This document shows positions 1,527 to 21,212 of a stretch of DNA of 21,265 nucleotides, in pieces. This DNA comes from an uncultured Erysipelotrichaceae bacterium (lineage in GTDB: Bacteria > Bacillota_I > Bacilli_A > Erysipelotrichales > Erysipelotrichaceae): contig CAYNZZ010000019.1 in the NCBI GenBank assembly GCA_964401865.1, positions 1-21,265 of the forward strand, in the 5' to 3' direction. Made by a program: the position numbers and the translations under genes. The notes under the pieces were generated by a model. It saw only the letters and a list, made by a program, of their open reading frames with translations, was not told the DNA's origin and did not search any database. Within the stretch, counting starts at the first letter, position 1. Each line of letters opens with the position of its first letter.

Positions 1527-1745
1527 AAAGTGTGCTCCTTTTTTTAACAAAAAAATTTTACAACAAAATCTAATAATAGTATAGAAAAAAGTACATTTTT
1601 TGATGTTTTTTGCACATTTTTATACGCACCTATAAATAATATAGAAAGGCCAATTAATGCGCAGAAATAAACAAAAGGTTATAATTGGTTCAAACACATA
1701 AATAGATTTGTAATGTGACAAAAGAAAAACATTTACAAAACAAGT

Positions 1746-5101: not shown

Positions 5102-5158
5102 CAAAAGAAATTATTAACGTAACTCAGAAAAACAAAACTGAATTAATGAGGTGATGAC

Positions 5159-6172
5159 ATGGCTAAACTGAACCTTGGTCTCCCCTCTTATGAGGACAGT
5201 ATCTTCTCTACCCAACAGGAAAGAAATGCTCTAAAAGCTGAAAGAGTTACAAAATACCAATTGCACAAATTAGAGATTTTGAAGGTCATCCATTTAGTGT
5301 TGTTCTGGATGATGATATGAAAAAAACTGATGGAATCAATTCAAACCAGCGGTATGAATACACCAGCTATCGTTCGTCCTGCTAAATATGGCAATGGATA
5401 TGAAATGATTGCTGGACACCGAAGAAAATTTGCATTGAATCAATTAGGGATTGCAGATATGGATGTCATCATTCGTAATTATGACGATGATGATGCAGTA
5501 ATCCATATGGTTGATACAAATATTCAAAGAGAAACCATAAAACCTACTGAGCGTGGATATGCATATAAGATGCGTTTGGATGCAATGGTTCATCAAGGTA
5601 AGAAAAAAGATTTTTCAGATGTTGATGTTGGTGTTGAGTATAACTCAACTTCTCGACAAGTTGGCGAAAAGTATACAAGCGTTGCTGTACTCGCATCACA
5701 ACTGAATGAAAGCGAAAGACAGATACAGCGATTTATCCGATTAACATATCTGAACAAGGATCTGCAACAAATGGTTGACCACATTCATCCTGAAGATATA
5801 ACAATAGCATTCAATCCAGCAGTTGAACTGTCATTTCTTAATTTGGATGAGCAAAACGATTTAACAGAATTAATTCTGGAAAAACTGGCAACGCCATCAC
5901 TGGCTCAGTGTCAGGATTTCAAAAAGAAAAGCAAAGAAGGCATTCTCACTAAGAGCTATATGGATAGGGTTCTTAGTTTGGAGAAACCAAACTAAAGGGA
6001 AACGATAAATATTCCATTCAGTGAAACGAATGAGATTTATCCAAAAGACATCACTCCCAGAGGAAGACGACTTCATCTTAAGAAGCTCTGGAAGATTTGG
6101 AAGAATAGCACGGAATATGAAAAGGACATCAAAGAAATTCGTGATGCAAGAAAGAAAAGTCACGAAAGATAG
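5159..6172 (+). pseudogene. parB: ParB/KorB-like nuclease-domain protein of conjugative elements (two compensating homopolymer frameshifts plus an in-frame TAA)
   Basis: SD gaggtg plus ATG 5159 gives MAKLNLGLPSYEDSIFSTQQERNALKAERVTK. The frame shifts at the A4 run ~5255 to IPIAQIRDFEGHPFSVVLDDDMKK, then back at the A7 run 5320..5326 to LMESIQTSGMNTPAIVRP...IAGHRRKFA (ParB box). An in-frame TAA at 5993..5995 is followed by 58 further open codons in the same frame, to TAG 6170..6172. Confidence 0.8.
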
Positions 6173-6411
6173 TCCAGGTACAAATTATGAATTTGCACAT
6201 ATTCCTTGAAAACAGGTAATGAGGGGGGCCTGGCTATGCGTTTCAACGTGACTGTCTTTTCCCCCTGAAACCCCTCTACAACCCGAAAGAATATCTTTCG
6301 TTACTAACCGAAAGAAAAAAATAACTGTTATTCATATATTTGAATATCTGCAGTATTAACAATACCTTCTAACTGAAAGGAACTGGATAAATATCCAGAA
6401 TATGAAACATT

Positions 6412-7002
6412 ATGAAATCTAAAAAACTATCAGTTGTATTTATTTCATTACTATTGGTTGGTTGTTCAGCAAGAACTGATCCTGTATTACTAGTAGAACC
6501 TACACAGAACGATACAGAATCAATACAAAGCACAATTCAGGAAACTATTGTTGATGAGGAAAATGCTGAAGAACTTTTAGAAGAGGAAACAAAAGAAGAA
6601 ACAAGTAATTCTTTTTCTTCGGAAAGTAATTCACCAGCTCCATCTTCTAATGAACAGCCTAAATCAAAGGAACCAGAGGTAAAAAAAGAAGAGGAAAAGA
6701 AACCTGATCCTAAACCTGCTCCTGATCCAGTTATTGAAGTTCCTGCTCCACAGCCTGAACCACCAAAGCCTGATCCTACACCAACTCCTGCACCAGAACC
6801 ACCTAAAGAAGAACCTAAAAAGACATTTGTTCTTCCAGCAAACTGGAGTAATGGTGATGAGCATCATGAATATTACCTGACAACAGCAGAAGCAGCTGCA
6901 AGAGTTAAAGAGCTATGGGATCAGAGGAAAGATGCAGGATACAGTGAACTGTATGATGCAGAAACCAATACAACATACGCCTGGGTTACCTGGTGGGAAT
7001 AA
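6412..7002 (+). CDS. Putative lipoprotein with acidic and Pro-rich linker (unknown function)
   Basis: MKSKKLSVVFISLLLVGCSA is a signal peptide with an L-V-G-C lipobox. A long E/K-rich then PxP-rich linker follows (PEPPKPDPTPTPAPEPP), then a ~55-aa Trp/Tyr-rich C-terminal module. There is no clear SD, so the start is uncertain. Confidence 0.65.
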   Translation: MKSKKLSVVFISLLLVGCSARTDPVLLVEPTQNDTESIQSTIQETIVDEENAEELLEEETKEETSNSFSSESNSPAPSSNEQPKSKEPEVKKEEEKKPDPKPAPDPVIEVPAPQPEPPKPDPTPTPAPEPPKEEPKKTFVLPANWSNGDEHHEYYLTTAEAAARVKELWDQRKDAGYSELYDAETNTTYAWVTWWE

Positions 7003-7057
7003 ATACAATTACGGCAATCGTTACGGTTTCCTTTTTTAATGAAAGGAAAGAATTATT

Positions 7058-10000
7058 ATGAGTAAAACAAAAGAGATCTTTAGAAAAATACTACTAACCT
7101 TTTTCTCTTTAGCCATGATCATAGCTACAATGCCTATGACTAAAGTATTCGCAGAGGAAGGCAGTCTTCATGTCACTTACTATGATGGTTATACCAATAC
7201 AGGAGTTACTTTTACCGGCTATGATGGAAACCAGCATGGATTGCTATTTGTTTATGGACCAGATGGCGTCAAGCATAACGTATCTACTTCAGGCTATGAC
7301 ATCAATGGTGAAGTAGTATTCTGCATCCAGCCAAATATCTATACAGAAAACGGCTACTACTACGCTTCCGATGGAAACCTGTACAACCATTTAACAGATT
7401 CCCAAGCAAGAAGATTAGAGATGATCTCCTGGTTCGGTTATGGATACAATGGAGATTATTCACCAGAAGCAAGAATTGCCACACAGTTATTAATCTGGGA
7501 AACAATGGGTTTCTCAATCACTGGATATATTGACTCAGTTGGATCAAAGATGGGAACAATCAGTTCAAGAGTCAATAAATATAACAATCGAGCTGTACCA
7601 TCATTTGCCAAGAAAACTCATACTCTCTATGGCGTTGGTGAAGAATATGCTATCACTCTTACCGATACAAACAATGCAGTATCAAGCTGGTATAAAACAT
7701 CTTCTCCAGATGGAATCAGCTATGAAATTAATGGCAATACAATCAGAGTCTGGGCAAATAAAGATATTACTGGAACCAAGACAATCAATTATGATCTTAT
7801 CAATCCAAATGATTCAAGACAGGATGGTGCATCAGTAGTTTATGTAAATCCAAATAACGCTCGGAAATTAGTCAGATTAAGAGACCCATTCAAGAGATAT
7901 ACAGATGTATCGTTCAGACTTGTTACCGGTTCTTTCAACCTTACAAAGGTTGATTCAGAGGGTTGATTAGATGGAGATAGAGCTACACCTCAGGGCGATG
8001 CTACATTAAATGGTGCTGAGTATGCGTTAATTAATGACAGTGAAAAAGCTATCTCTAATACCGTTGATCATCTTGATATCAGAGACACTTACACATTAAA
8101 GGAAACAAAAGCTCCAGTTGGTTATTTAACAGACAAATCGGAATATAAAGTAACTTTCACAGATGATGGAACCAGCAATGTCATCAAGGTTAGAAGAGAT
8201 TTATCTGATGATGTTATCAAGTTCAATCTTGCTGTATATAAAGTCACTACAGATCGAGAAGAATCAGAATCAATCCCACCTGTTAGTGCTGCCGAGTTCA
8301 CATTAACGCTTAAGAGCTCCGGCGAGGTTGATGCCGTCAAAGAAACTGACAGCAATGGACAGTTAACCTTCGATAGCTTATACACCGTTACAGAGACTAA
8401 AACACCACAGGGATTAGAAACTGTTAAACCATTTGATTTTGATGGAAGAATCAGTGAAGAAGAACACACTTATACTTTCCACCGTTATGCAAATGATGCA
8501 CCATTCAGGGCATGGGTTGGCATTTACAAGGTGGATGCCGAAACAGGAAAGAAGATTCCAGCAGCTGGTGTTGAATTCAAAGTCAAAGACAGTGCAGGCA
8601 ACTACATTACTCAAACAGTCAGCTACCAGTCAAGACATGAAACAGATACTTTCGTCACTAATGAAGATGGTTTCGTTAATCTTCCAGAAAAGCTTCTTTA
8701 TGGAAAATAAACTATCTGTGAAATCAAAGCACCATATGGTTATGTTTTGGCGAAAAAAGAATTCCCATTGAATGTAGATGGATCTGAAACCGAAATCTTT
8801 ATTGAATTTGAAAATAAACAGCAGCATGGTCAGCTTCATGCAGAAAAGTTTGGTGAATTCTTTACCGGATCCGAAAAAGAAGAAAATAAGTATGGCGATT
8901 TATATACTCCTGTTTACTCAGAAAAATATCTTGAGGGTGTCACTTATGAAATCATTGCCAGAGAGGATATTGTTGGTCAGGAAGGCACAGTATTCTTCAA
9001 CAAAGGTGATGTCGTAGATACATTTACAACAAAGAACGAAATCACTAAATCTGCTCTTCTTCATTTAGGTGCATACAGCATTAAGGAAACAGCAACTCTT
9101 CCTGGTTATGTTCTTGATGAAACAGCATATGACTTCGATATTGAATATGCTGGTCAGTTAGTAGAAATCGTACAGATTGATAAATCATTCAAGAATGAAG
9201 GACAGAAACTTGATCTTGTTATCAGCAAAAAATTTGAAGATGCAGAATATGAGAAGGGTTCAAAAGCATATGAAGATATTGTCTTTGGCATTTACACAAA
9301 CGAGAACTTTGTTATTGGTGAAGAAATTGTTATTCCCGTTGATTCATTAGTTGGCTTACTTACAATTGATGAAAATGGTCACAATAAAGAACAATATGAC
9401 TTACCTTGTGGAACTACTATGTTAAGGAATTAGAAACAAATGTAGGCTTTGTGATAAATGAAGAAAAGCATGAATTCACATTCAATACTGATGATTCGGG
9501 TAAAGCAACTGTAACAGTAAAGCTTGATTCAATCGAAAATAACAAACGTCGTTTAGATATCGAAGTAACAAAGGTTGATGCAAAGCACACAGAACACTTA
9601 CTAAATGGTGCAATCTTTGAAGTATACGATAAGACAACCGAAACTTATGTAATTACGCTTTGCTCAGGTAAGTTAATGATCAAGGATTCTAAGTCTGGAG
9701 TTGAATATGAGATAGCTACAGACGAATCATTTGAAAACATCATCAAGACAGTTAAAACAGATTTTGATAAAGAAATAATTCTTGAGCTTGATGAAGGAAC
9801 TTATTACTCAAGAAAAGCTCTGATCGTAACAGAAGATGATGTTGATCTGGAATTTATGATCAATAACAATCCTGTAACAAGACATGTAGTAAATCATGGA
9901 AAAGCAACTCTTACAGATGCTATTTATGGACATGAATATGAATTCAAGGAAATTGTTGCTCCAACTTCATATCACATTAACGCCAAGCCATTGACGGTTG

Positions 10001-10083
10001 AAGTGATTGCAGACAGAAATACTGCAATTATCCGAAAGACATATGTTAACTACAGAATCGAAATTCCAAATACAGGTATCTAA
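7058..10083 (+). pseudogene. Thioester-domain (TQXA) / SpaA-CnaB-repeat surface adhesin with LPXTG-like IPNTG motif; disrupted
   Basis: Signal peptide (...TKVFA/EE). Thioester-domain motifs are VVFCIQPN (Cys codon 7322..7324) and ATQLLIWE (Gln codon 7484..7486). Prealbumin/CnaB-type signatures repeat: LKETKAPVGY, VTETKTPQGL, CEIKAPYGYVL, IKETATLPGYVL, VKELETNVGFVI, FKEIVAPTSY. There is an in-frame TGA at 7964..7966. The segment 7967..8707 is 247 open codons with no ATG and only a late GTG, so it is absent from the ORF track. There is an in-frame TAA at 8708..8710 (context LLYGK*TICEIKAP) and a frameshift ~9405..9433. The gene ends IPNTGI* (10063..10083). Confidence 0.8.
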
Positions 10084-10085
10084 AG

Positions 10086-10835
10086 ATGAAAAAGAAAAAA
10101 GTTATTATTTTAGTGATATCAGTCCTGGTTCTAGCTTCAGCCGAGGATTTTATCTATCATAAAGCAAACGATAAACAGGCTTATGACTATTCAGAATTCT
10201 ATGAGGAAGTTACACCTGATGAAGAATCGGAAATAGAAGAAACGATGATTGAGGAAGAACTAGAAATGGTTCTTTCTTTGCAATTGCTGTATGAAAGAAA
10301 CAGCGATATTGTAGGAATCCTGAAGTTTGATGACAAAGTTATCTATGAACCAGTTGCCCAGGCCCCAGATAATAAATTTTATGAGCGCAAAAATATTGAT
10401 AGATCCTATGCTGCAGCAGGCATCCCTTTCGTGTCAGCTGATGGCAATATCTATTCCAAAAATGTCGTCATCTTCGGGCATTCCTTAGCTTGCAGAGATA
10501 TTATCTTTACCCCATTAATGAACTACCTCAATATGGCTTATTACAATGAACATCCAACATTTACCTTTGAAACATTCAATGGTAATCGTACCTATGAAAT
10601 CTTTGCGGTGATTGGATACGATACAAACAATGTTGATGATTCACTTGAATTTATTCAAACTTCCTGGAGAAAACAATCTGAGTTTGAATCATTTATTAGA
10701 AATATCAAGGCAAAAAGCTTTTACAAAACAAATGTAGTAGTCGATGCATACGATGACATCGTGACTCTAGTTACCTGTGATAACAGAGATAATTCAAAAC
10801 GTGTTGTTGTTTTAGCAAAGCTACTATCAGAATAA
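10086..10835 (+). CDS. srtB: Class B sortase
   Basis: N-terminal TM anchor (KKKKVIILVISVLVLAS), catalytic His context VVIFGHS, catalytic Cys in TLVTCD, and a downstream Arg (KRVVVLAKL). It lies 2 nt after the adhesin stop. Confidence 0.85.
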   Translation: MKKKKVIILVISVLVLASAEDFIYHKANDKQAYDYSEFYEEVTPDEESEIEETMIEEELEMVLSLQLLYERNSDIVGILKFDDKVIYEPVAQAPDNKFYERKNIDRSYAAAGIPFVSADGNIYSKNVVIFGHSLACRDIIFTPLMNYLNMAYYNEHPTFTFETFNGNRTYEIFAVIGYDTNNVDDSLEFIQTSWRKQSEFESFIRNIKAKSFYKTNVVVDAYDDIVTLVTCDNRDNSKRVVVLAKLLSE

Positions 10836-10844
10836 GGAGAACAA

Positions 10845-11023
10845 ATGAAATACAGAAAAGAAAAGAAGAAATCGAAGTAATTAATAACGCACTTAAGCTT
10901 CAGGCTTTCCTGAAGTCAGATGCTGCATTTGAAGACTCAAATGGCTTTAGTGTAAAGCCATCGAGCCGTTCTAAGTTTAATGATTACTTGTCAAAAATCA
11001 GTAACTACAGAAAGGAAGATTAA
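10845..11023 (+). pseudogene. Small conserved-looking ORF split by a frameshift in an A-rich run
   Basis: SD aaggaga plus ATG 10845 gives MKYRKEKKKSK*. The adjacent frame continues EEIEVINNALKLQAFLKSDAAFEDSNGFSVKPSSRSKFNDYLSKISNYRKED* and ends 2 nt before the next ATG. Function unknown. Confidence 0.35.
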
Positions 11024-11025
11024 CT

Positions 11026-11550
11026 ATGGAATTACGAGATATCCTGGCAACACTTGCCATGAAGTATGATGGTGAATTAGTACCATTAATTAATGCTTTA
11101 GAAAATAATGAGCGCGTTGATGCAACACAGTTTGAAACATTCAAAGCAAAACTCAAATACAATTATGTCACTCTAATCGACGACAATTACCCTGAAATTC
11201 TTAAGCACGTTGAGAATCCTCCCATCGTGCTTTTTTATAAAGGCAACCTTGATTTGATTAACTTTGGCCATCAGATTATCGCAAAGGAAAGTGATGAAGG
11301 TGTAAGAATGCTACATGTCATTGATCCAGAACTTACCCCAAGAGGAATTAAGATGGACTATGTAATGGCATGCGAATGTCATGATGATATGAATCTTTTA
11401 ATGAGCAAAATGCACGAAACCCAGGAAGACCTAAATCAGTGTATGGACTTTCTAAAAAGCAGAACAAATAAAGAAAAACTGTTCATTAATCTCTCATATT
11501 CAAAGATAATCGCACATATTTATAGATATTTTACGAGATTATTCTCGTAA
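11026..11550 (+). CDS. DprA/Smf N-terminal-like protein lacking the Rossmann-fold DNA-binding core
   Basis: YVTLIDDNYPEILKHVENPPIVLFYKGNLDLI closely resembles the DprA segment that precedes the Rossmann domain. The expected ...VGSR..S.YG... core does not follow. The C-terminal ~25 aa overlap an inverted repeat and promoter and look non-native. Confidence 0.5.
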   Translation: MELRDILATLAMKYDGELVPLINALENNERVDATQFETFKAKLKYNYVTLIDDNYPEILKHVENPPIVLFYKGNLDLINFGHQIIAKESDEGVRMLHVIDPELTPRGIKMDYVMACECHDDMNLLMSKMHETQEDLNQCMDFLKSRTNKEKLFINLSYSKIIAHIYRYFTRLFS

Positions 11551-11554
11551 ACCG

Positions 11555-11583
11555 TTGATATTACTCGTAATTGCGTGTATTAT
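11555..11583 (+). promoter_or_regulatory. Sigma-70-type promoter candidate for fic (TTGATA-17 nt-TATTAT), preceded by hairpin ttacgaga-ttat-tctcgtaa (11530..11549)
   Basis: The -35 ttgata is at 11555..11560, followed by a 17-nt spacer and the -10 tattat at 11578..11583. The fic ATG is 23 nt downstream of the -10. The tacgaga/tctcgta motif recurs at 11563..11568 and 11585..11591, a possible operator. Confidence 0.45.
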
Positions 11584-11605
11584 ATACGAGAAAGATGGTG
11601 ATTTT

Positions 11606-12652
11606 ATGAGATTCTTTGATTATTCGAAACTAGAAAAGCTGCAGTTTGATAGCGCTATTATCAATCTTTTGACTAGTATTCACGAGGCAAAAGGAAGACA
11701 GGAGCTTTATTTAGCAAGGCAACCAGAAGAACTTAATAGACTGGTAGAAATTGCGAAGATACAGAGTGTTGATGCAAGTAATGATATTGAAGGCATTCGT
11801 ACAACTGAAACAAGACTTAAGCAATTAGTCAGTGAAAAGACAACTCCAAAAAACAGAGATGAAGAAGAAATCTCCGGATACAGGGATGCGCTAAATATTA
11901 TTCATGAAAGCTTCGATTATATTGCATTGACACCTAATTATATTCTTCAGTTACATGGCATAATGTTTAAACATGTTCATGGAAATAACTTCGGTGGTCA
12001 TTTCAAGAATGTACAAAACTATATTCAGGGAATTGATGGTGCCGGCAATTCATATACAGTCTTTACACCCTTAGCTCCATATGAAACTGCACCAGCTATT
12101 GAGAACTTGTGTGAAACATTCAATAAAGCAATGGAAGAAGGAAAGGTTGATCCATTAATTCTGATTCCGGTATTTGTGCACGATTTCCTGTGTATTCATC
12201 CGTTCAGAGATGGAAATGGTAGAATGAGCAGATTACTGACTACCCTGCTCTTATATCGAAGTGGGTATTATGTTGGAAAATATATTTCCTTAGAAGCTAA
12301 GATTGCTAAGATCAAAGACTCTTACTACGATGCCTTGAGTGAAAGTCAGGATGGATGGCATGAGGAAAGAGACAATCCAGTTCCATTCATCAAGTATTTG
12401 CTATCAATTATCGATATGTCATACAGAGACTTTGAAGACCGTTTGGAATTGGTACAAAAGAAAACAAACGCAAGTAAACTGGTTGAACTGGCATTTGAAA
12501 GAAAGATTGGTAAGATCAGAAAATCTGACATTGTTGAACTATGTCCTAACATTTCCGTCAGCGCAGTAGAAAAAGGAATTAAGAAACTTCTTGATGAAGG
12601 AAAAATCAGAAAAGAAGGTAATGGTAAGAATACCTTCTACGTTAAGAACTAA
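11606..12652 (+). CDS. fic: Fic-family protein (AMPylase-type), class II auto-inhibited, with C-terminal winged-helix-like tail
   Basis: Canonical Fic motif HPFRDGNGRMSR (12197..12232). The N-terminal inhibitory motif S-x-x-x-E-G is present as SNDIEG (11777..11794). The start is taken at ATG 11606 (MRFFDYSKLEK...), because the track's upstream 17 codons overlap the promoter. Confidence 0.9.
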   Translation: MRFFDYSKLEKLQFDSAIINLLTSIHEAKGRQELYLARQPEELNRLVEIAKIQSVDASNDIEGIRTTETRLKQLVSEKTTPKNRDEEEISGYRDALNIIHESFDYIALTPNYILQLHGIMFKHVHGNNFGGHFKNVQNYIQGIDGAGNSYTVFTPLAPYETAPAIENLCETFNKAMEEGKVDPLILIPVFVHDFLCIHPFRDGNGRMSRLLTTLLLYRSGYYVGKYISLEAKIAKIKDSYYDALSESQDGWHEERDNPVPFIKYLLSIIDMSYRDFEDRLELVQKKTNASKLVELAFERKIGKIRKSDIVELCPNISVSAVEKGIKKLLDEGKIRKEGNGKNTFYVKN

Positions 12653-12697
12653 CTTTTTCAATAGCAAATCGAGGTGATATTTTTGAAATTTACAAAA

Positions 12698-12726
12698 TTG
12701 ACCGATGATAAAAGAGACATTACATT
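12698..12726 (+). promoter_or_regulatory. Promoter candidate TTGACC-17 nt-TACATT upstream of the small HTH gene
   Basis: Hexamers and spacing were read from the sequence. This is valid only if the gene starts at ATG 12749 rather than at the upstream TTG 12683. Confidence 0.3.
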
Positions 12727-12748
12727 TGAGGTGAAAGGAGAACTGCCT

Positions 12749-12991
12749 ATGACAGATAAAAGCAATATCATTTACATGAATATCCCAAGCTTTACTGGAC
12801 GCAATGTACCAATCACCGAAATAGCCAATGTAATTGGTAAATCGCCAGAAACCATCAGATATGCACTTAGAGAAGGAATATTTCACTTTGGCGTTGCTAT
12901 ACAATCTGATAAATCCGATGGTTATAGTTACTATTGCCCTGATAAACGAGTATGGGAAGAAACTGGATATTTTAGTGATAACTATTCTTAG
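12749..12991 (+). CDS. Small HTH DNA-binding protein common in Firmicutes conjugative elements
   Basis: SD aaaggag lies 8 nt upstream of ATG 12749. The 80-aa product contains ITEIANVIGKSPETIRYALREGIFHFGV (HTH-like) and ends ...YYCPDKRVWEETGYF. An alternative in-frame TTG at 12683 also has its own SD. Confidence 0.55.
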   Translation: MTDKSNIIYMNIPSFTGRNVPITEIANVIGKSPETIRYALREGIFHFGVAIQSDKSDGYSYYCPDKRVWEETGYFSDNYS

Positions 12992-13046
12992 CGTTGTCAC
13001 CAAACCACTTCGTAAAATTTAATCTACTGTTTATCACTTTATGAAG

Positions 13047-13072
13047 CAGATTCAGAAATGGATCTGTTTTTC
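13047..13072 (+). terminator. Weak rho-independent terminator candidate
   Basis: cagatt-cagaaatg-gatctg (6 bp including one G-U pair) followed by tttttctt. Confidence 0.3.
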
Positions 13073-13099
13073 TTATTGGCAAAAAGGAGGTGATATTTT

Positions 13100-13225
13100 T
13101 TGCCACAATACGATAAAACAAAAGAAGCATTTGAAAAGATTGAACAAGGTGTTAAAGAGGTTTATCAATCAGATAACTTTAGGCAATATCTTTCAATGTT
13201 AACCAAATTTCATGATTATTGTTAG
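13100..13225 (+). pseudogene. N-terminal 41-codon stub of an ArdC-like (N-terminal ssDNA-binding domain) conjugative-element protein
   Basis: SD aaggagg plus TTG 13100 gives PQYDKTKEAFEKIEQGVKEVYQSDNFRQYLSMLTKFHDYC*. This resembles the start of ArdC/DUF1738-type proteins (...YL.F..KFH.YS..N). The reading stops where VirB4 homology begins. Confidence 0.5.
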
Positions 13226-14411
13226 AACATTAATTACTGAATCATTATCTGCTTTTGTACCATTCAGAGCACAGGAAATTCTTGAACAAGGCGGTATCTG
13301 GTATGGTCAAAACGCTATTACAAATAATCCAATTCTCATTAATCGAGAGAACCTTCAGAATGCAAACACCTGGGTATTAGGTGTACCCGGATCGGGCAAG
13401 TCGTTCTTATCAAAGGAAATTCTGGAATTTGTCATTGCCAGCACTAATGATGATGTCATCATCGTTGATTCTGAAGGAGAGTACGATATTATCATCAAAG
13501 CACTCAAAGGCCAGATTATTGAAATTGGTACATCAACAAATGATCATATCAATGCAATGGATATGACAGAAGGATATGGAGAAAGTGGCAATGCCATTGC
13601 AGATAAATCACAATTCATTATGTCGTTGTTTGAACAATTAGAAACCACAAGAAAGAACAGTGGCATATCTGCTTTGGACAGATCAATCATTGATAGATGT
13701 GTAGCATTGGTATACAAGGATTCATATGAAAACAACTACACCCCTACTCTTAAGAATCTGTATAGGAAACTACTCGAACAGCCTGAACCTGAAGCTAAAA
13801 CACTGGCAATCAAATTGGAGCTGTTTACTAATGGTTCGTTAAATATCTTTGCTCATGAGACCAATGTTGATATCAATAACAGAATTCTTTCGTTCAATAT
13901 CTTTAAACTAGGCAAGCAGCTAAAGGCAATGGGCTTGCTGGTTATTACCGATGCAATTATCAACAGAGTCAATGAAAACTGGAAGAAAGGCAAACGAACT
14001 CATGTCTTCATTGATGAAGTTCATGTTGTATTTGAAAACGAAGAATCAGCAACATTCTTTGCTTCGGCTTGGAGACAGTTTAGAAAAAGAGATGCCTACC
14101 CTACAGGAATCACACAGAATGTTAAATATCTGTTGGATTCACAACAGGGAACATCGATGTTCTCAAACTCACAGTTCATCATTATGCTGAACCAGTCACC
14201 AAATGACCGTGAAAAACTTGGCCATTTATTGAATATTCCTGATGAGCAAATGCGATTTATTACTGATGTCTCTGAAGGACATGGTTTGATTAAATATGGA
14301 TCTGCAATTGTACCTTTTGTTAATGAAATGCCAGCAAGCTGGTTAAAAGATCTAAACAGCACTAAGCCATCTGATCGAAAAGAAATGATGCTAAGAACTA
14401 ATGGCAATTAG
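13212..14411 (+). pseudogene. virB4: VirB4/TraE-type conjugative ATPase, C-terminal half only
   Basis: ...TLITESLSAFVPF...GIWYGQNAITNNPI..., Walker A GVPGSGKS (13380..13403) and Walker B HVFIDEVHVV. About 400 N-terminal residues of a normal VirB4 are missing, and there is no SD at the ORF start. Confidence 0.85.
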
Positions 14412-15395
14412 AACAAAAGAAAGCGTACAATACGTCAGATACCATAACAATGTTGCAAAACTGAACCATATTCTACAGCAGCATGCGATCCATTCATCTA
14501 ATAACAAGAGTAATAAAGATGCTTCAGCAGAATCCTCTGCAACAAATAATGTTCAATAAACAGCTATATCCTCGTCATCAGAGCTAGCATATAAGATCAA
14601 GAGACACATAACTAATCAGTCCGAAAAGAAATATTATGCTAAGCAAGAAAGAATCAATAACACCAGAAACAGAAATCCTATTACCACCAAAAAACAGGAA
14701 ATGCCAAAAAGAACTCCCAAACCTGATTACAACCAGGTTACTGTTCAGGCACGAAACAGCACAATTAACAAAACGAAACAGGAAACTGCCAACAAAGCAA
14801 AAGATGCCTCCACTTATATAATAGATAAGGCAGAATCTATGATTATTGCTGCCTTCAACGCTATCAAAGCAGGTCTTGCTTCATCATCAAATGCATTGAT
14901 AATGGGAATTGCTGGAGCAGCACTTGTTATTGTCATCGTTATTTGTTCTTGTTTTGGAACCGGAGGCGGTGAGGCATTGGATCAACCAAACTTCTTTAAC
15001 ATGGATGCCTATGTAATAAAAAATCCATATGCACAATCTGGGCTATATGGACAATGTACCTGGTTTGCCTGGGGAAGGTTTTATGAATTATATGGTTATT
15101 CACCTGGTTTTACCGGTGATGGATGGCATTGTGCGGAACAACTAGTTGCTGCTCATCCTGACACCTGGGAACTATCTGAAACACCCACTGATTTATGTGT
15201 CTTCTCTGGTGTAGGTTTTAATCATGTTGGCATTGTTCTCTATTACCATAATGGTATTTTAACCATTCAACATGGCAATATGGATGGTGAAACCAATACC
15301 TTTGAAGATGCAACAAAAGACTGTGTGAAATGCAAATATCTTTGGAAGATATCCAGAAAAGATATGACGGTGTGATATTCGCTATACCTAAATGA
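14401..15395 (+). pseudogene. T4SS-associated CHAP/NlpC-P60-type cell-wall hydrolase with N-terminal TM anchor; in-frame TAA and probable 3' frameshift
   Basis: ATG 14401 overlaps the virB4 stop. An in-frame TAA lies at 14557..14559 and the same frame continues into ORF 14701..15375. There is a TM segment (IMGIAGAALVIVIVICSCF), a CHAP nucleophile context GQCTWFAWG (Cys codon 15055..15057) and a His context FNHVGIV. From ~15321 another frame reads LCEMQISLEDIQKRYDGVIFAIPK* and ends at 15393..15395, just before the terminator. Confidence 0.75.
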
Positions 15396-15475: not shown

Positions 15476-16192
15476 TCACTGCCATTCTTCACTATCAAAG
15501 GTTATTAACCCCTCAGCAGTCATTCTTGCTATTGCACTCAATGAATGATTTTCTTGTTTCGATATATGAACATTTACCTTTTTACCGGTATTTATATCAA
15601 TTCCTAAATAAAATCTATGGCATACAACATGAATATACTCAAAAACCGGCTGTTTACACTCTAAAGATTCCATAATCCAATCAACAATGTTATTCTCTGC
15701 ATCTTTTGTTGGCATTTCAGGCAAAATAACAACTAACTCCACTCTTTCATAATGGCATAAATAGCAGGGGAGTTTCTCCAATTTTCTATAAATGCTATAT
15801 TGAATAAATTGTTTTTCATTGACAGATGTAGATGCTGGAGCAACGGCGATATACCCAATTTCTGACTTAGCAACAGAATAATTCTCTTTCTCTATTGCGG
15901 AAAGAAGTTTTTTATCATATGTGTTACTGTCATCTTCGCAAAGCTGTGCAAATAATCTAGAAGTTTTCATATCTCTTTCCTGAACAGCTGCCGTCACTTC
16001 TATACCGGTTTTATTATCAGGATCTTGCAAATCTGGTGCGTCTCTCGCAATAAAAGAACCATATTTAATAGGATTAATATATTTTAATGTAGCTAAAACC
16101 CGATATTCTTGAGATAGTTTTAACAGTTGTGGAGATATACTTCTCTTAGGCTTATATTGCAATATACGCTCTGTAAAGAGATTCATATCCAA
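15476..16192 (-). CDS. Hypothetical protein, last gene of the operon; possible PD-(D/E)xK-like nuclease motif
   Basis: 238-aa ORF. SD-like agagg lies 5 nt before TTG 16192; ATG 16186 is an alternative start. The gap to the upstream stop is 8 nt. The segment ARDAPDLQDPDNKTGIEVTAAVQE resembles a PD...(D/E)x(K/T) core. I recognise no family. Confidence 0.6.
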   Translation of the reverse strand: MDMNLFTERILQYKPKRSISPQLLKLSQEYRVLATLKYINPIKYGSFIARDAPDLQDPDNKTGIEVTAAVQERDMKTSRLFAQLCEDDSNTYDKKLLSAIEKENYSVAKSEIGYIAVAPASTSVNEKQFIQYSIYRKLEKLPCYLCHYERVELVVILPEMPTKDAENNIVDWIMESLECKQPVFEYIHVVCHRFYLGIDINTGKKVNVHISKQENHSLSAIARMTAEGLITFDSEEWQ

Positions 16193-16200
16193 ATTAGCCT

Positions 16201-17566
16201 CTATTTGTTAATAGCAGGAGGAATACATCCACATACGTCAGACAGTTCACTAACAGAATTTAGAGGTACCCAATCTACCATCCCCGGTTTCCATACCAAG
16301 CTATTGCTTATTATTTGTCCAGTTATAGCCATCTGCTTCAAAGCATCTAAATTAAATGGACCTGTTGCCTGGTTGTTGATAGCAACATAATACCCAACAG
16401 CAGGAACAGGAGGCGGAGTAGTGGTTGACTGAACAGTCTGATTCACATTTGACATCATTCCACCCATGATTCCTGCTACATTTTGTCCAACAGCACTTCC
16501 GATAGCCATACCAGCCATCATTGTTGCGGGATTAAATCCAGTATTATTACCACCTAGATCAACACCCGATGCACCACTTGCGCCCATTCCGCCAAGAGCT
16601 TCTGCTCCTGCAATGCCAACACTTGCCTGCATTTCAGTTTGATAAGCAGCAAAGTTCGATGTCTGCGTTTGTTTGTGCTGCGCATATTGTGCTTCCTCGC
16701 GTTGAATTCGAAGTGTTTCTGCATAATTTTCTGCCTCTATGCGTTGATTGTCCTGCATTTGTTTAATGTTAACAGCTGTTTGGGCTTTCACCATTTCTGT
16801 AGTCATGGTTTGAGTAATAGCCATTAGCTTAGCATAACCCTCAGACGATTTATCAATTTCTATTGCTCCAATATCAACACCTGATACTTCTACACCAAAA
16901 TCTTCTTTCAATCGTTGGCAAATATCATATTCAACAGCATCGTTTATTTGTGCAATTTTGCTTTCAAGTTGAACAACAGGTATGTTATGAATAGAAGGAG
17001 CATTGGCAACTGCATCTTTTACATATCGGATCACAGAATCACGAATCTGCTTTTCAAAATCTTCTAAACTAAAAGTATTCAGTCTATGCAATTTAATAAA
17101 CTCTCTGTAATTTTCGATTCTAAAGCTGATTGTTCCGCGCACAGCGACAGGAACAGTGAAATCTAAAAAGCGTGGGTCACATACATCAAAAAATGGTACC
17201 CCAAATCTCACTTGAGTAATTCGAGCTAGGTTGATAAAATATACTTCTGCCTGAAATGGTGATCCACCTTCATAAGCAAGTCCAATAATACTGGCAATAA
17301 TAGGAAGGTTTTCTGTATTTAGAACATTATCATATGGACCTTCGACAAAGTCTTGATAAACACCATTTCGCTGATCATATACAAATACAGCCACTTCGCC
17401 ATCTTTTACACGCAAAGGCGAACCCCATCGAATGGCATTTTCTCTACCGTTGTTTCCAGCCTGCGAACCAGCTGGATGCCACTTCCATATCAAATATGAT
17501 GGTTCATCACAGCGAATTTCATCCATAAAACCGCCTGCTTTTTTTTCTTCTATCAAATAAATTCAT
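16201..17566 (-). CDS. YdjI-type SPFH (stomatin/prohibitin/flotillin/HflKC-like) protein with Gly/Met/Ala-rich linker and C-terminal GYF_2 domain; 5' end frameshifted in an A8 run
   Basis: The body (ORF 16201..17556) aligns to the COG4260/YdjI pattern: ...IWKW...LRVKDGEVAVFV...NLPII...GGSPFQAEVYFIN.... A Q-rich coiled region follows, then GGMGASGASG...AGIMGGMM low complexity, TTTPPPVP, then YYVAINNQATGPFNLDALKQMAITGQIISNSLVWKPGMVDWVPLNSVSEL (GYF_2-like, 16243..16395). A strong SD aggagg plus ATG 17566 encodes MNLFDRRKK, the family-typical start, in another frame. The frames meet in the A8 run at 17539..17546. Confidence 0.8.
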
Positions 17567-17577
17567 ATTATTTCCTC

Positions 17578-19908
17578 CTATTGTTGTATAGGTCTACCTT
17601 TTAGTTTTGGACAATTTGCAAAAGCATCTTTCCCAATAATTGTGTCATCGTTCCAAATAGTTGCACTGCTCAATTCCGAACAACCATCAAATGCGTGTTC
17701 ACCAACTTCTTTTGTATTGAATCCAATACTAATACTAGGCAATGAGCTACAATCTGCGAATGCGTAATCATCTATATCTGGATCGCCCCATAAAATTACG
17801 CTTGTCAAATCAGTGCATTTTTCAAAGGCATGTTTTCCAATATATGTTGTTTCATTTGGAATACTTATTTTTTGAAGAGATGTACATCCGTAGAAAGCGT
17901 AATCACCTATGGTTTCTATATCTGCCCAGAAAATAACGTTTTCTAGTGTCGTGCAATTTTTAAATGCAGATTCTCCAATACTTGTAACTTTATGCCCATC
18001 TATTTTACTATCTATTGTTAAATGGTTTCCGTCTCCACTAAATCCAGTAATCTCAGCATTTCCATTTTTTAAAACTTTGTATTCAACAGTTAACTCAACT
18101 GTCTTGCTGGATTCAACTTCCTGATTTGCATTATTCAGTTCTGGCATTTTATTTACGACATCTTCATCCAATCGCCTTACAACTAAGTTTATTTCCTCAT
18201 AATTTTGGCTGCGGATTAAATTATCATATTCCTGTCCTTTGCTATCTGTTTCATATTGCAAACGTAGTTCGGTATTAACCTTAATATCCTGTGAAACGAC
18301 AATATATTGTTTAAGACTATCTTCACTGCTATCATCAATGAAAGAACCGTCTTCTGATGTAAATGATATTCGAAGTTTCCCTTTACCATAGTAATCAACT
18401 CGATCATTTCCGTAATAATCACCAAATGAAGCTGCATTCCTACCAACATAGTCACGAATATAATACAAATGCCTATCTAAAGATGGAGAGATTTCAACAT
18501 ACTCAGGCTGATAGCCTGCAGAACCTATAGCGGAAACATATAACACAATTTCCTCATAACTTTGATAATCAACTAAGTTACTATATGGTCTACCTTTGCT
18601 ATCTCGTAGATGAACAATAGTTAGATTTGTTCCAGCTCGCAAGTTTTGTTCAACGACAGTATATTGCTTCTTTATTTCATCATTTTTAAAGAAGACCATC
18701 CCATCTTCTGAGACAAACACAATACGCAAACGCCCTTTTCCATATTCATCAATTAGATAATCTCCGTATTCTTTTCCTATAGAAGCCACATTTTTTCCTA
18801 TGTAATTGCGAATTTGATAAGTATAGATTCCCTGGGAATCATCAGACTCCATGTTTTCTGTAATCGTTGGACTTTCATGTTTTGAACTTACCATATTCTT
18901 TGGCGCTACTAAGTTACCTATTGCATATGTCACAAAAAGAATCAACAAACAAACAACTGTAACAACTAGCGATGTTACATTTAGTGATGTATTTCTTTCA
19001 GGGATTTTCTTACCATTTTTAACCGTTCTAACCAAAATGATAATACAACAAATAACTTCAACAATAAGTATCAACTGGAATGCGTTTGTTCCAACACTAT
19101 CTAAATTTTCCCTACATAAAGGAATCATTACAATAATGTTTAATATCAATCCGGATAATGTTACAAACTTTGGAAGTATATCCTTACATTTAAGAACTAT
19201 CGGAATAAAAATAGCACCAGCAACAAAATCAAGCATTAGAAGTAACTGAAAACCATTTGTTCCAACATTGTCAAGATTAACTCTACACATAGGAAGCAAA
19301 ATAAAAATACTAAGAAGCCAACCAAAAACGATAATAAGTCGAGGAAGTGTCGGGATAATTTCAGCGAATGCGAATCCTATTTTTTTTACGCTTTGTATGG
19401 TCCTTTTATGCTCTAGTTGTTTCAAAATTGCTTGATATTGCGCTTCAATTTCATTCAAGTCATTCTTTTCACGGAACACAAGTTTCGCTTTCTGCATAAC
19501 CTGCTCTAGTTTAGCTTGCCAAGCTGCAGATATTTCTCCATCTAAACTTTGGTTAATATTTGATGATGCAAGAATCAAAAACTCCCATATGTCTTCTTTA
19601 GCATTAGGAATAGGAAAATGACGAATTACGGATATTTTTTCCAATTCGCCTGAAGCTTTGGACAATTGATCTGCAAACACTTTCACGGAGTCAGTTGCCT
19701 CGGCACCTCGAATTTCATAACCGCAAGTTGGACATCTTGATGCAAAAGAATCAAGTAACTCACCACAATTCGGACATTTATATATTTTTCCTTCATATAT
19801 AGGTTTTCGGATTGATTGTATTTCATCCGGTTTAATTGCAGTCCCACAATTATCACAGAATTTCGCACCATCACGTAGTTTTTGACCACAATTCGGACAG
19901 TAATTCAT
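17578..19908 (-). CDS. Multidomain membrane protein: two N-terminal zinc ribbons, helical domain, ~5 TM segments, two tandem ~100-aa extracytoplasmic domains, C-terminal BspA-type leucine-rich repeats
   Basis: SD aaaggaag plus ATG 19908 gives MNYCPNCGQKLRDGAKFCDNCG and YKCPNCGELLDSFASRCPTCG (CxxC...CxxC twice). FPIPNAKEDIWEFLILASSNI follows. Hydrophobic segments fall at about aa 203-219, 232-254, 261-277, 289-308 and 324-346 (track numbering). The tandem domains begin YTYQIRNYIGKNVASIG... and LYYIRDYVGRNAASFG.... The LRR_5-like repeats read VTSIGESAFKNCTTLENV / IETIGDYAFYGCTSLQKI / TTYIGKHAFEKCTDLTSV / IDDYAFADCSSLPSI / KEVGEHAFDGCSELSSA / TIIGKDAFANCPKL. Confidence 0.8.
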   Translation of the reverse strand: MNYCPNCGQKLRDGAKFCDNCGTAIKPDEIQSIRKPIYEGKIYKCPNCGELLDSFASRCPTCGYEIRGAEATDSVKVFADQLSKASGELEKISVIRHFPIPNAKEDIWEFLILASSNINQSLDGEISAAWQAKLEQVMQKAKLVFREKNDLNEIEAQYQAILKQLEHKRTIQSVKKIGFAFAEIIPTLPRLIIVFGWLLSIFILLPMCRVNLDNVGTNGFQLLLMLDFVAGAIFIPIVLKCKDILPKFVTLSGLILNIIVMIPLCRENLDSVGTNAFQLILIVEVICCIIILVRTVKNGKKIPERNTSLNVTSLVVTVVCLLILFVTYAIGNLVAPKNMVSSKHESPTITENMESDDSQGIYTYQIRNYIGKNVASIGKEYGDYLIDEYGKGRLRIVFVSEDGMVFFKNDEIKKQYTVVEQNLRAGTNLTIVHLRDSKGRPYSNLVDYQSYEEIVLYVSAIGSAGYQPEYVEISPSLDRHLYYIRDYVGRNAASFGDYYGNDRVDYYGKGKLRISFTSEDGSFIDDSSEDSLKQYIVVSQDIKVNTELRLQYETDSKGQEYDNLIRSQNYEEINLVVRRLDEDVVNKMPELNNANQEVESSKTVELTVEYKVLKNGNAEITGFSGDGNHLTIDSKIDGHKVTSIGESAFKNCTTLENVIFWADIETIGDYAFYGCTSLQKISIPNETTYIGKHAFEKCTDLTSVILWGDPDIDDYAFADCSSLPSISIGFNTKEVGEHAFDGCSELSSATIWNDDTIIGKDAFANCPKLKGRPIQQ
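18169..18828 (-). repeat. Tandem duplication of a ~100-aa extracytoplasmic domain (PASTA-like spacing of conserved G/hydrophobic positions)
   Basis: Y.IR.Y.G.N.AS.G..YG....D.YGKG.LRI.F.SEDG.......E...KQY.VV.Q.......L........SKG..Y.NL...Q.YEEI.L.V is shared by the copies at aa ~375-475 and ~494-594. Confidence 0.65.
19036..19299 (-). repeat. Internal duplication of a TM hairpin unit (period 171 nt / 57 aa) inside the giant gene
   Basis: LLPMCRVNLDNVGTNGFQLLLMLDF versus MIPLCRENLDSVGTNAFQLILIVEV. At DNA level, tttgttccaaca recurs at 19085 and 19256, exactly 171 nt apart. Confidence 0.7.
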
Positions 19909-19942
19909 ATTCATCATCTTCCTTTCATTTATAATCCCAAAA

Positions 19943-20155
19943 TCAATCAACGCTATCTTCTACTGCATCGCAAATATCTCCAATATTGCATTCAAGGTAC
20001 TCACAAATTCGAAGAAGCACCGATAATGCTACTTCTTCGTTCTTTCTCAGCTTTGTCATAGTACCTGTTGCAATACACAAGTCTCTTCGCATAGTCACAG
20101 GAGATATGTCTTTCTCAATCAGTAGTATCCATAGCTTTTTATAGCTTATTTTCAT
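19943..20155 (-). CDS. XRE/Cro-type helix-turn-helix transcriptional regulator, first gene of the operon
   Basis: ATG 20155 gives MKISYKKLWILLIEKDISPVTMRRDLCIATGTMTKLRKNEEVALSVLLRICEYLECNIGDICDAV (70 aa). This is a common short HTH family (MKI.Y.KLW.LL.....K.DL......S..T..KL.KNE.V....L.KIC..L.C.I.DI). The track's 17-codon N-terminal extension overlaps the promoter. Confidence 0.8.
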   Translation of the reverse strand: MKISYKKLWILLIEKDISPVTMRRDLCIATGTMTKLRKNEEVALSVLLRICEYLECNIGDICDAVEDSVD

Positions 20156-20196
20156 AGAAATGGCCCTTTCACACTCCAAACTATTTATATTATTTA

Positions 20197-20225
20197 AATA
20201 TATCATCGATATACAAAGAATTCAA
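20197..20225 (-). promoter_or_regulatory. Sigma-70-type promoter candidate for the HTH-led operon (TTGAAT-17 nt-TATATT on the minus strand)
   Basis: The -35 is the reverse complement of 20220..20225, followed by a 17-nt spacer. The -10 is the reverse complement of 20197..20202. It lies ~40 nt upstream of ATG 20155. Confidence 0.45.
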
Positions 20226-20285: not shown

Positions 20286-20962
20286 TCAATTATCATCCGA
20301 AATAATCTTTGCATATTTTACAAATGTGTTACGTGTTATTTTATGTTTTTTCAACAAATCAGATATCTTTAGATTTCTATTCCCAACTGACTGATTTAGA
20401 TACTTAATAATATCTTCCCTTAATTCATCACTCATCTTATCGAGTTTACCAATGGCTCTACCTGGTTTCTTTTCCGAAAAAGATAATCCATCTTTTATTC
20501 TCTTCGATAAGATTAATCTTTCTTGTTCAACACGATTAAGTTCAACGATTAAAAGTAGCTTAACCGTTGATTCTAACGATACCTGAGCAACTAGATCCTG
20601 CTGTTCAGCCACATGAAGTAATTCCTTTATATATGTGTTGATACTGTTGGATTATCAATAAAGACTAATTCGATCCCTTTTCTCATCAACTCCATATACT
20701 TGTCATAGCCGTTTAGAGCTTCTCTCGTAAAACGAGAAATGTCTTTAAAAACAATGGTGTCACCTTCTCTTGCCAAAGATTCCAGTTTCTTCCATTCTTT
20801 TCTGTTGTCAAAAGATTTGCCAGATTCATCTTCTTTATATTCAGCAGCAAAAACAACACCATTATCTTTTGCATATTGAGCTAAATCCTTTTCCTGTCTA
20901 TTAAACTTTTGCTTCTGACGTTCTTCTTTCGTTGAAATTCTCATATAACTTAAATAAGCCAT
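20286..20962 (-). pseudogene. Small serine recombinase (resolvase/invertase family) split by one frameshift
   Basis: SD gggggtg plus ATG 20962 gives MAYLSYMRISTKEERQKQ, which holds the catalytic Ser context; ...IVFKDISRFTRE... follows. The frame ends PTVSTHI* at 20627. The adjacent frame continues YIKELLHVAEQQDLVAQVSLE...SKRIKDGL...GRAIGKL... with a C-terminal HTH (ISDLLKKHKITRNTFVKYAK). The frameshift is at ~20615..20630. Confidence 0.8.
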
Positions 20963-20990
20963 AAGCACCCCCAAGTATAGTGAATATATC

Positions 20991-21212
20991 GTGCCTTTGA
21001 TGGAACGGCTCGGCTTTGATCAAACGCCTCATTGTTGTAGACATACCTTTATTTCTTTACTTGCCGAAGCAAAAATATCACCAACATATACAAAACTGAT
21101 TGTTGGCCATAAAGGTGCTATGTCATTGACTGAAAAGGTATATACGCATATCGACATGAGCCATCTTCTTGAAGCGGTAAACTCAATTTACTATCCGAAA
21201 ATAAACCAATAA
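20991..21212 (+). pseudogene. Tyrosine recombinase/integrase, C-terminal ~70 aa only
   Basis: TPHCCRHTFISLL (HxxR box), IVGHKG and EKVYTHID (catalytic Tyr context). There is no upstream catalytic-domain or N-terminal sequence. The fragment begins within ~15 nt of the divergent serine-recombinase SD. Confidence 0.8.

Follow-up and report, generated by a model that had tools for sequence, protein, structure and literature searches.

Proteins with an SPFH domain, which include the flotillin-like proteins, occur across life. To our knowledge, how such proteins are recruited and controlled in bacteria is known in only a few cases, namely HflKC-FtsH, QmcA-YbbJ and SamGHI. SamI (YdjI) is an SPFH protein without a transmembrane (TM) segment that needs SamG and SamH (YdjG and YdjH) for recruitment to the membrane, and it restrains the signalling of SamG and SamH (PMC8581546; bioRxiv 10.64898/2026.02.06.704340). 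YdjG has been described as two zinc ribbons, a YpeB/NTF2-like middle domain and a TM segment, and YdjI as a band-7 domain with C-terminal zinc ribbons (PMC11237479). The corresponding pspA-ydjGHI genes form a chromosomal, sigma-W-controlled operon of B. subtilis (PMC8581546). The combination of SPFH and GYF domains in one protein has been listed before, together with the observation that bacterial GYF genes often lie beside genes for TM proteins (Balaji and Aravind 2007, PMC2034487). GltJ of Myxococcus has a cytosolic GYF domain to which a proline-rich sequence binds, and next to it a zinc ribbon that serves as a protein-binding switch (PMC11135422). Here we compare these systems with a locus in a stretch of 21,265 nucleotides (nt) from an uncultured Erysipelotrichaceae bacterium (contig CAYNZZ010000019.1), referred to below as the window. 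Its minus strand encodes a membrane protein of 776 amino acids (aa) that carries two zinc ribbons, five TM helices, a tandem beta domain and a leucine-rich repeat domain (LRR_5), and beside it an SPFH protein that ends in a GYF_2 domain.

The gene for the 776-aa protein (17578..19908) is the middle gene of a conserved operon. The original prediction, made from the letters of the window and a list of its open reading frames (ORFs), missed this gene context, and the protein is no isolated oddity. Directly upstream, a small helix-turn-helix regulator of the Cro/C1 type is encoded (HTH_26, Pfam E 4.7e-16; 19943..20206, minus strand); 35 nt separate the stop codon of its gene from the ATG at 19908. 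Downstream, also on the minus strand, lies the gene for a cytosolic SPFH protein of 451 aa (16201..17556), assigned by Pfam, similarity to YdjI and conserved synteny. This partner consists of a Band_7_1 domain (PF13421, E 9e-24), a coiled low-complexity region rich in glycine, methionine and alanine, the stretch PPPVP and, at the C-terminus, GYF_2 (E 2e-17), and has no TM segment. The best solved match to its GYF domain is the GltJ GYF structure 7z3c (E 2.5e-9). In the reading that we prefer, to which we give a probability of roughly 55%, the 776-aa protein is the surface-exposed membrane subunit of a mobile cassette composed of the HTH_26 regulator, the membrane protein and the SPFH-GYF_2 protein, and would act as a transmembrane sensor or anchor that docks the SPFH-GYF_2 scaffold. 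Observed directly were the domain order, both internal duplications, the close and conserved linkage with the SPFH-GYF_2 gene, the exchange of ectodomains among relatives and the location on mobile elements.

The linkage was assessed by scanning metagenomes with a profile built from the helical domain and the TM part. This gave 323 confirmed relatives, of which the best 80 loci were kept. SPFH genes were searched by tblastn in these 80 loci and in two viral loci, whose membrane proteins form 26 clusters at ≥80% identity. An SPFH homolog was found nearby in 21 of the 26 clusters, and in 19 of them the SPFH gene begins 8-186 bp after the stop codon of the membrane protein gene, on the same strand. 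The order HTH_26, membrane protein and Band_7_1/GYF_2 was observed in the window, in L002-L004 with the full-length homolog P0007, in L005-L008 around P0084 (550 aa, DUF6591 ectodomain) and in L017-L020 around P0041, a relative of a second type. An HTH_26 gene lies upstream in most related loci. In L009 (P0045), the SPFH-GYF_2 gene is located two genes downstream. In L011 (P0015), an SPFH-GYF_2 gene directly follows a second zinc-ribbon gene, the 259-aa product of which is a minimal form with ribbons, helical domain and TM segment and no ectodomain. Small ORFs of 140-158 aa between the HTH_26 and membrane protein genes of some loci were rejected as a component, as they are mutually unrelated and absent from the window.

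A library search with residues 66-345 of the 776-aa protein returned 1073 clusters (built at 50% identity) with E ≤ 1e-3, 281 with E ≤ 1e-10 and 27 with E ≤ 1e-30. Most matches cover the helical domain alone, starting near residue 65 of proteins of 230-400 aa, and the majority of the relatives are short (235-390 aa) and lack an ectodomain. Judged by these matches, a module of two or three genes forms the core and is widespread, while the 776-aa protein represents a less common and more elaborate version. The named sources of the relatives are metagenome-assembled genomes of Christensenellaceae, Ruminococcus and Faecousia, and human, pig and bovine gut samples. The suggestion that the protein belongs to no recognised family stands only in part. 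No paper describing the cassette was found, but the family is large, as the 281 clusters with E ≤ 1e-10 contain its cytoplasmic head.

Some loci weigh against a fixed partnership of the membrane protein with an SPFH scaffold. Two clusters, the L081 and L084 groups, have more than 6 kb of downstream sequence without an SPFH gene, and the full-length homolog P0016 (L001) has none within 8 kb. Since the L081 and L084 groups keep the helical domain without an SPFH gene, the head can work without this partner. Also, no PspA, TPM or protease gene that would suggest an output was found near the cassette. Three further clusters show no SPFH gene; among these, the downstream sequence is only 1.1 kb long in L059 and too short for a judgement in L097. 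In L081, the head protein (L081:6866-8938) is encoded after a MerR-like regulator and before a 411-aa zinc-ribbon-TM protein with an ectodomain that is DUF6591-like by eye.

The ORF list gives the membrane protein gene as a minus-strand ORF at 17578..19950, corresponding to 790 aa with a TTG start. Translation from the ATG at 19908 yields 776 aa with the N-terminus MNYCPNCG, in agreement with the homolog consensus MxFCxNCG, and GAAAGGAAG is present as a ribosome-binding site 5' of this frame. An alternative ATG is found two codons earlier, at 19914. The gene is supported by the ORF, by Pfam and by homologs, 16 of which are full-length with 53-71% identity. Pfam, hydropathy and an AlphaFold2 model bear out the predicted architecture of a double ribbon, TM hairpins, a tandem domain and an LRR tip. 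All features of the protein given below are on the minus strand. A DZR/Zn_Ribbon_1 match spans aa 1-65 (Pfam E 1e-10 to 1e-13). It includes zinc ribbon 1 (aa 1-24, CPNC...CDNC, 19837..19908; Zn_Ribbon_1 at aa 3-24) and zinc ribbon 2 (aa 43-65, CPNC...CPTC, 19714..19782; DZR at aa 4-63). None of the eight ribbon cysteines (C4, C7, C18, C21, C45, C48, C59 and C62) varies among 51 aligned relatives. The ribbons are followed by a helical domain (aa 73-182, 19363..19692), which is defined by the AlphaFold2 helices and is the signature of the wider family. It carries the invariant motifs FPxPN..ED..EF and AW..K.EQ, in which P101 and N102 are invariant, and FPxPN is placed by the model in a loop joining two helices. 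The model of aa 1-345 (mean pLDDT, the model's confidence score, of 81) shows two ribbons, the helical bundle at 73-182 and five TM helices at 185-207, 219-238, 244-266, 276-299 and 311-334. Hydropathy also gives five hydrophobic segments, the first beginning near aa 185, so that the predicted number of about five is confirmed by both methods.

The C-terminal part consists of the two beta domains and the LRR_5 domain. Beta domain copy 1 (aa 358-462, 18523..18837) gives an all-beta model with a mean pLDDT of 86.7, and copy 2 (aa 477-581, 18166..18480) was delimited by repeat alignment with copy 1; both are predicted to be extracytoplasmic. The BspA-type LRR_5 domain at aa 642-770 (17599..17985) is matched by PF13306 with E 2.7e-34 and 118 bits against a cut-off of 27.7. 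Between the ribbons and LRR_5, no Pfam match was obtained. With Foldseek, the N-terminal model has no PDB match at E < 0.3, and the ectodomain model has no match in PDB or BFVD at E < 0.1. The tandem domain, for which a PASTA or Big/Ig-like identity had been suggested, is not recognisable as either, with no match in Pfam and no Foldseek match in PDB or BFVD. The tandem beta domain and the helical head are thus without a Pfam family and without a detectable solved relative. The protein contains no LPXTG motif and ends in ...NCPKLKGRPIQQ; a signal peptide and choline-binding repeats are also absent, the N-terminus being a zinc ribbon. No TIR match was obtained with Pfam. Searches of PADLOC, PHROGs and NCBIfam with the membrane protein, its SPFH partner and a neighbouring 238-aa ORF led to no informative family.

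With regard to topology, the N-terminus of the 776-aa protein most probably lies inside and its C-terminus outside. Each TM hairpin returns the chain to its starting side, and therefore TM5 (aa 311-334, 18907..18978; hydropathy 2.55, a helix in the AlphaFold2 model), the lone chain-crossing helix, alone sets the parity. The N-terminal 185 residues are expected inside because no signal sequence is present there. The loop before TM5 carries two to seven lysine or arginine residues in all 19 five-TM homologs analysed. A profile search with the beta domain found eight short proteins that carry this domain. Among the stand-alone beta-domain proteins, P0123, P0126 and P0127 have lipoprotein signals (L-x-A-C), and P0125 and P0128 have secretory signal peptides. 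Because these stand-alone copies have signal peptides, the beta domain works outside the membrane elsewhere. Solved relatives of the LRR_5 domain are 4fs7 (E 5.9e-47), 4gt6, annotated as ‘cell surface protein’, TpLRR (6mlx) and PcpA (4cp6). Together, the TM parity, the lysine/arginine bias, the signal peptides of the beta-domain proteins and the surface relatives of LRR_5 favour the predicted arrangement, with the ribbons inside and the tandem domains and LRR outside.

Other relatives fit this arrangement less well. The second-type relatives P0041, P0045 and P0030 consist of ribbons, one hydrophobic segment, a helical domain, one TM segment and an ectodomain, which is an even count. In these and in short relatives (including L011:3209-3988), a hydrophobic segment of about 20 residues, …NIYLICIPLLIY…, is found between the ribbons and the helical domain, with lysine or arginine on both flanks. 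This segment may either be re-entrant or place the ribbons outside, and the even-count relatives fit the topology model only if it is re-entrant. In addition, most relatives with a zinc ribbon, a TIR domain and LRR_5 have no TM segment, and LRR_5 can be cytoplasmic there. For this reason LRR_5 alone is no proof of an outside location. LRR_5 repeats, which the original prediction placed normally on secreted or wall-anchored adhesins, are not always extracellular.

Both the membrane part and the beta domains arose by internal duplication. TM hairpin 1 (19195..19356) comprises TM1 (185-207), the outer loop C-R-V-N-L-D-N-V-G-T-N and TM2 (219-238) with D227. TM hairpin 2 (19012..19179) comprises TM3 (244-266), the loop C-R-E-N-L-D-S-V-G-T-N and TM4 (276-299) with E284. 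The hairpins are identical at 21 of 53 residues (40%), with a score of 125 compared to 26 ± 4.5 for shuffled sequences (z = 22) and a period of 57 aa or 171 nt. The beta copies share 44% identity across about 105 aa (z = 33), with a period of 119 aa or 357 nt. In the original prediction, both duplications were said to be still visible in the DNA. At the protein level they are real, but the DNA-level signal is weak and only short stretches of conserved motifs match. Local matches reach at best 55 nt and 36 nt (z of about 10 and 7 compared to shuffles), and the DNA repeats D3, D6 and D10 are three short families at a spacing of 357. Tandem Repeats Finder reported nothing in 17500-20000, as the duplications are too diverged. 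Between proteins, beta copy 1 is 52-78% identical, whereas copies 1 and 2 are 35-44% identical. Since copy 1 is more alike across proteins than copies 1 and 2 are within any protein, the beta duplication is old. Both hairpins are kept in all 28 five-TM relatives, and the hairpin duplication is old as well. In the five-TM relatives, position 227 is aspartate or glutamate in 25 of 28 and position 284 is glutamate or aspartate in 26 of 28; in both hairpins, the acidic residue lies eight residues into the returning helix. The outer-loop motif C-x2-N-L-D-x2-G-x-N is present in both hairpins of nearly all 28. A passive anchor would not usually show such conservation, which hints at a pseudo-symmetric four-helix bundle that might bind an ion or a ligand.

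The ectodomain is swappable among the relatives, in which LRR_5, DUF6591 or other domains are found. The same ectodomains also occur behind a different head. P0049 (L016:499-3240) consists of a zinc ribbon, TIR_2, a second zinc ribbon, three TM segments, two beta domains and LRR_5, and shows 49% identity to the 776-aa protein over 69% of the latter. Its 9.5-kb contig has no SPFH gene and holds another zinc-ribbon-TIR protein and a zinc-ribbon-TM-LRR_5 protein. A search with the P0049 head yielded 71 proteins. About 35 clusters (90% identity) combine TIR_2 with LRR_5, and most of these proteins have no TM segment and are presumably soluble. Two proteins combine TIR_2 with DUF6591 and have three TM segments, and others have TM2, Sel1 or TPR tails. 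In P0049, P0283 and P0288, three TM segments lie between TIR and tail, a layout in the style of a Toll-like receptor. As the same ectodomains are found behind ribbon-helical and zinc-ribbon-TIR heads, it can be concluded that heads, membrane parts and tails have been exchanged among relatives. So far, an SPFH partner has been seen with the ribbon-helical head only, and the contrast to the TIR head comes from the one contig of P0049. As a separate observation, zinc-ribbon-TIR_2 proteins of gut Clostridia, among them also P0289-P0329, carry LRR_5, DUF6591, TM2, Sel1 or TPR tails. The receptor-like design that had been proposed gains support from the swappable ectodomain and from its presence behind a TIR head. 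As a unique design, however, the protein does not hold up, as a zinc ribbon inside, a TM part and a domain outside is a recurrent Firmicute layout, found for example in the 902-aa neighbour in L016.

Judged by its gene content, the window is ICE-like (integrative and conjugative element) and adjoins guaA. The 550-aa relative P0084 occurs with identical sequence in four different flanking contexts. Elsewhere, the neighbours are resolvases, large serine recombinases, a type IV secretion system coupling protein, S subunits of restriction-modification (RM) systems, and RES, Macro and SLFN/AlbA_2 proteins. In viral collections, two IMG/VR loci and one GenBank phage record, an unannotated faecal metagenomic entry found by tblastn with the head, were obtained; the cassette is therefore rare there and not primarily phage-borne. 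A megablast search of the whole window against the plasmids of PLSDB gave no match. Directly after the SPFH-GYF gene, a 238-aa protein is encoded (15476..16192, minus strand), which may be an optional fourth component. Homologs with 35-41% identity follow the SPFH-GYF gene directly in L057, L060 and L100. No match to the 238-aa protein was found in Pfam, NCBIfam, PADLOC or PHROG.

The plus-strand region at 3014-15375 looks like partly decayed ICE- or plasmid-like cargo. Encoded there are fragments of AbiEi and of DprA (174 aa), a ParA ORF that starts with an AbiEii fragment, a short ParB, a Fic protein, a CHAP hydrolase, a TraG/VirB4-type ATPase of 399 aa, and a TED/SpaA adhesin distributed across several ORFs and accompanied by a sortase gene. 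In guaA (GMP synthase; 225-1550, minus strand), the GATase domain is partial, with a match to profile positions 1-78 of 190. Since guaA borders the ICE-like region, it may have been truncated or rearranged at an integration site. On the other side of the cassette, a resolvase is split into two minus-strand ORFs, the N-terminal catalytic part at 20627-20974 and a 108-aa ORF at 20286-20612. The latter has no Pfam match and resembles the C-terminal part of a resolvase by eye. A C-terminal fragment of a tyrosine integrase (20991-21212, plus strand) adjoins the split resolvase. These ORFs look like recombinase remnants beside the cassette.

In our preferred reading, a membrane-docked SPFH scaffold, the two zinc ribbons and the helical domain would form a docking platform in the cytoplasm. 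This platform might hold or gate the SPFH oligomer at the membrane, as SamG and SamH do for SamI. The beta domains and the LRR_5 tip would project outside and bind a ligand, for which a component of the cell wall, a second cell and a structure of a phage or of the conjugation apparatus are candidates. Binding would then localise or switch the SPFH scaffold. It is more speculative that the duplicated four-helix bundle is more than an anchor, and equally that the membrane protein contacts the SPFH protein through GYF_2 and a proline-containing motif. FPxPN was considered as the GYF ligand and downgraded. It is retained in the L081 and L084 groups despite the missing SPFH gene and sits in an interhelical loop of the model; it is probably structural. 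Candidate outputs are envelope-stress protection, exclusion or defence on behalf of the mobile element, and adhesion. A bolder version, which we regard as tentative and rather doubtful, takes the cassette as an unrecognised class of transmembrane surveillance borne on mobile elements. The fast-evolving, swappable ectodomain (beta domains with LRR_5, DUF6591 or others) would recognise a threat or partner outside the cell and signal through the zinc-ribbon/helical head to SPFH-GYF_2, and the TIR-headed paralogues would be a parallel, Toll-like branch of one receptor toolkit of gut Clostridia.

Among the alternatives, an anti-phage or anti-invader system survives best, but it is unlikely. It is a more specific version of the preferred reading with a defined output: the variable ectodomain would sense an attacker at the surface, or the system would exclude incoming DNA or cells, and the zinc-ribbon head would relay this to SPFH-GYF_2 as effector or scaffold. 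The settings of the cassette are always mobile or defence-island-like, with resolvases, RM S subunits, RES and Macro proteins, and an Anti-Pycsar-like metallo-beta-lactamase, SLFN/AlbA_2, AbiE fragments and Fic were also found nearby. Cargo status on a mobile element, however, is not specific to defence. Across loci, identity to the proteins of the window is 35-50% for the membrane head, 51-77% for the SPFH domain and 73-89% for HTH_26 (with L059 at 37.5% as an outlier), so the membrane subunit appears to diverge faster than its cassette neighbours. This, the swappable ectodomains and the presence of the beta-domain and LRR_5 ectodomain and of DUF6591 behind a zinc-ribbon-TIR head (P0049, P0283 and P0288), in a head family with about 35 TIR and LRR_5 clusters, are consistent with a role in defence. 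On the other hand, the membrane, SPFH-GYF and 238-aa proteins have no match in PADLOC-DB v2 at E ≤ 0.01, and the only match of a cassette protein is a marginal one of the HTH protein to ThsB (E 0.004). Nucleases, NADases, proteases and pore-forming effectors are absent from the cassette. The literature search brought up no defence system of this type that is based on an SPFH protein, and the scarcity of the cassette in viral collections also argues against this function.

A plain surface adhesin is less probable still. Here, LRR_5 would attach to host, mucus or partner cells, for example in ICE mating-pair formation, while the TM region would replace a sortase anchor, the zinc ribbons would be a generic cytoplasmic stopper and the SPFH gene would be a mere neighbour. 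The BspA type of the LRR_5 repeat with its solved relatives (‘cell surface protein’, TpLRR and PcpA), a weak NCBIfam match to the HupY/LrrG adhesin and the TED/SpaA-type adhesin with a sortase gene in the window are in line with this view. However, most family members have no ectodomain and yet keep the head and the SPFH partner, which rules out adhesion as the core function. In addition, 19 clusters share the gene order and the spacing of 8-186 bp, and conserved intramembrane acidic residues and loop motifs would not be expected in a passive anchor. Finally, a true member of the Psp/Sam envelope-stress system, in which the 776-aa protein would be a SamG orthologue recruiting SamI and PspA, is suggested by the two N-terminal zinc ribbons and the adjacent Band_7_1 gene and is very improbable, as the similarity to YdjG is confined to the ribbons, YdjG is tail-anchored, the partner ends in GYF_2 instead of zinc ribbons, and both pspA and a TPM-domain (YdjH) gene are missing from the window and from all related loci that were examined; SamG orthology was accordingly rejected.

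If the preferred reading of a docked SPFH scaffold is correct, the locus represents a small, mobile and abundant unit that joins an SPFH-GYF_2 protein to a zinc-ribbon membrane partner of its own, in Clostridia of the human, pig and bovine gut. As some versions of the cassette add a large, putatively ligand-binding ectodomain, it is directly testable whether an SPFH scaffold can be coupled to an extracellular signal. The swap to a TIR head points to bacterial proteins with the layout of a Toll-like receptor, which is of interest to the field of bacterial immunity.

Several known systems share single features with the 776-aa protein. Like BspA-type surface proteins, it has a clear LRR_5 domain in its C-terminal 130 aa. 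Those proteins are secreted, lipid-anchored or wall-bound, though, and have neither a polytopic membrane part nor a cytoplasmic head. The layout of Toll-like receptors, with LRR outside, TM part and TIR inside, is matched by P0049, whereas the 776-aa protein has no TIR domain. TcaA is a protein with one TM segment and a large extracellular part. With TcaA of S. aureus (NF053815), the 776-aa protein has in common an N-terminal zinc ribbon in a membrane-associated protein. The NCBIfam match covers residues 1-31 only, with 22.6 bits against a cut-off of 550, and no membrane domain or ectodomain is shared. Like GltJ, which is a membrane protein that links the inside to the outside, the cassette pairs a cytosolic zinc ribbon with a GYF domain. 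In the cassette, however, ribbon and GYF reside on two polypeptides, and a TonB-C domain, a gliding machinery and MglA/MglB are missing. The domain composition of the SPFH partner is precisely the SPFH+GYF combination of the 2007 list, and a proline-rich stretch, PPPVP, immediately precedes its GYF domain. Literature on SPFH proteins in connection with defence, zinc ribbons or GYF_2 yielded no description of the cassette.

The Sam system is the closest comparison. We used the ydjGHI locus of B. stercoris, which was found through a published primer sequence. The SPFH partner shows 24% identity to YdjI of this species over 219 aa (E 2e-12), and both belong to PF13421. With YdjG, only the ribbons of the 776-aa protein align (pairwise BLASTP, E 2e-6) and nothing beyond aa 95; the sole TM segment of YdjG lies at its extreme C-terminus. 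As with SamG and SamI, a membrane protein with two N-terminal zinc ribbons is encoded beside a TM-less Band_7_1 protein. Like SamI, the SPFH partner has a low-complexity tail rich in glycine and methionine and a small C-terminal adaptor domain, but this domain is GYF_2, whereas SamI ends in Zn_ribbon_3, a double zinc ribbon. The 776-aa protein departs from SamG in its helical domain, its five TM helices and its C-terminal ectodomain of 440 aa. Unlike the chromosomal pspA-ydjGHI operon, the cassette rides on mobile elements of gut Clostridia. By analogy, it would resemble the Sam system in its way of working without being a member of it. The cassette varies a theme already known, in which an SPFH scaffold has a membrane partner of its own, but the family of this membrane partner is new to the literature that we found.

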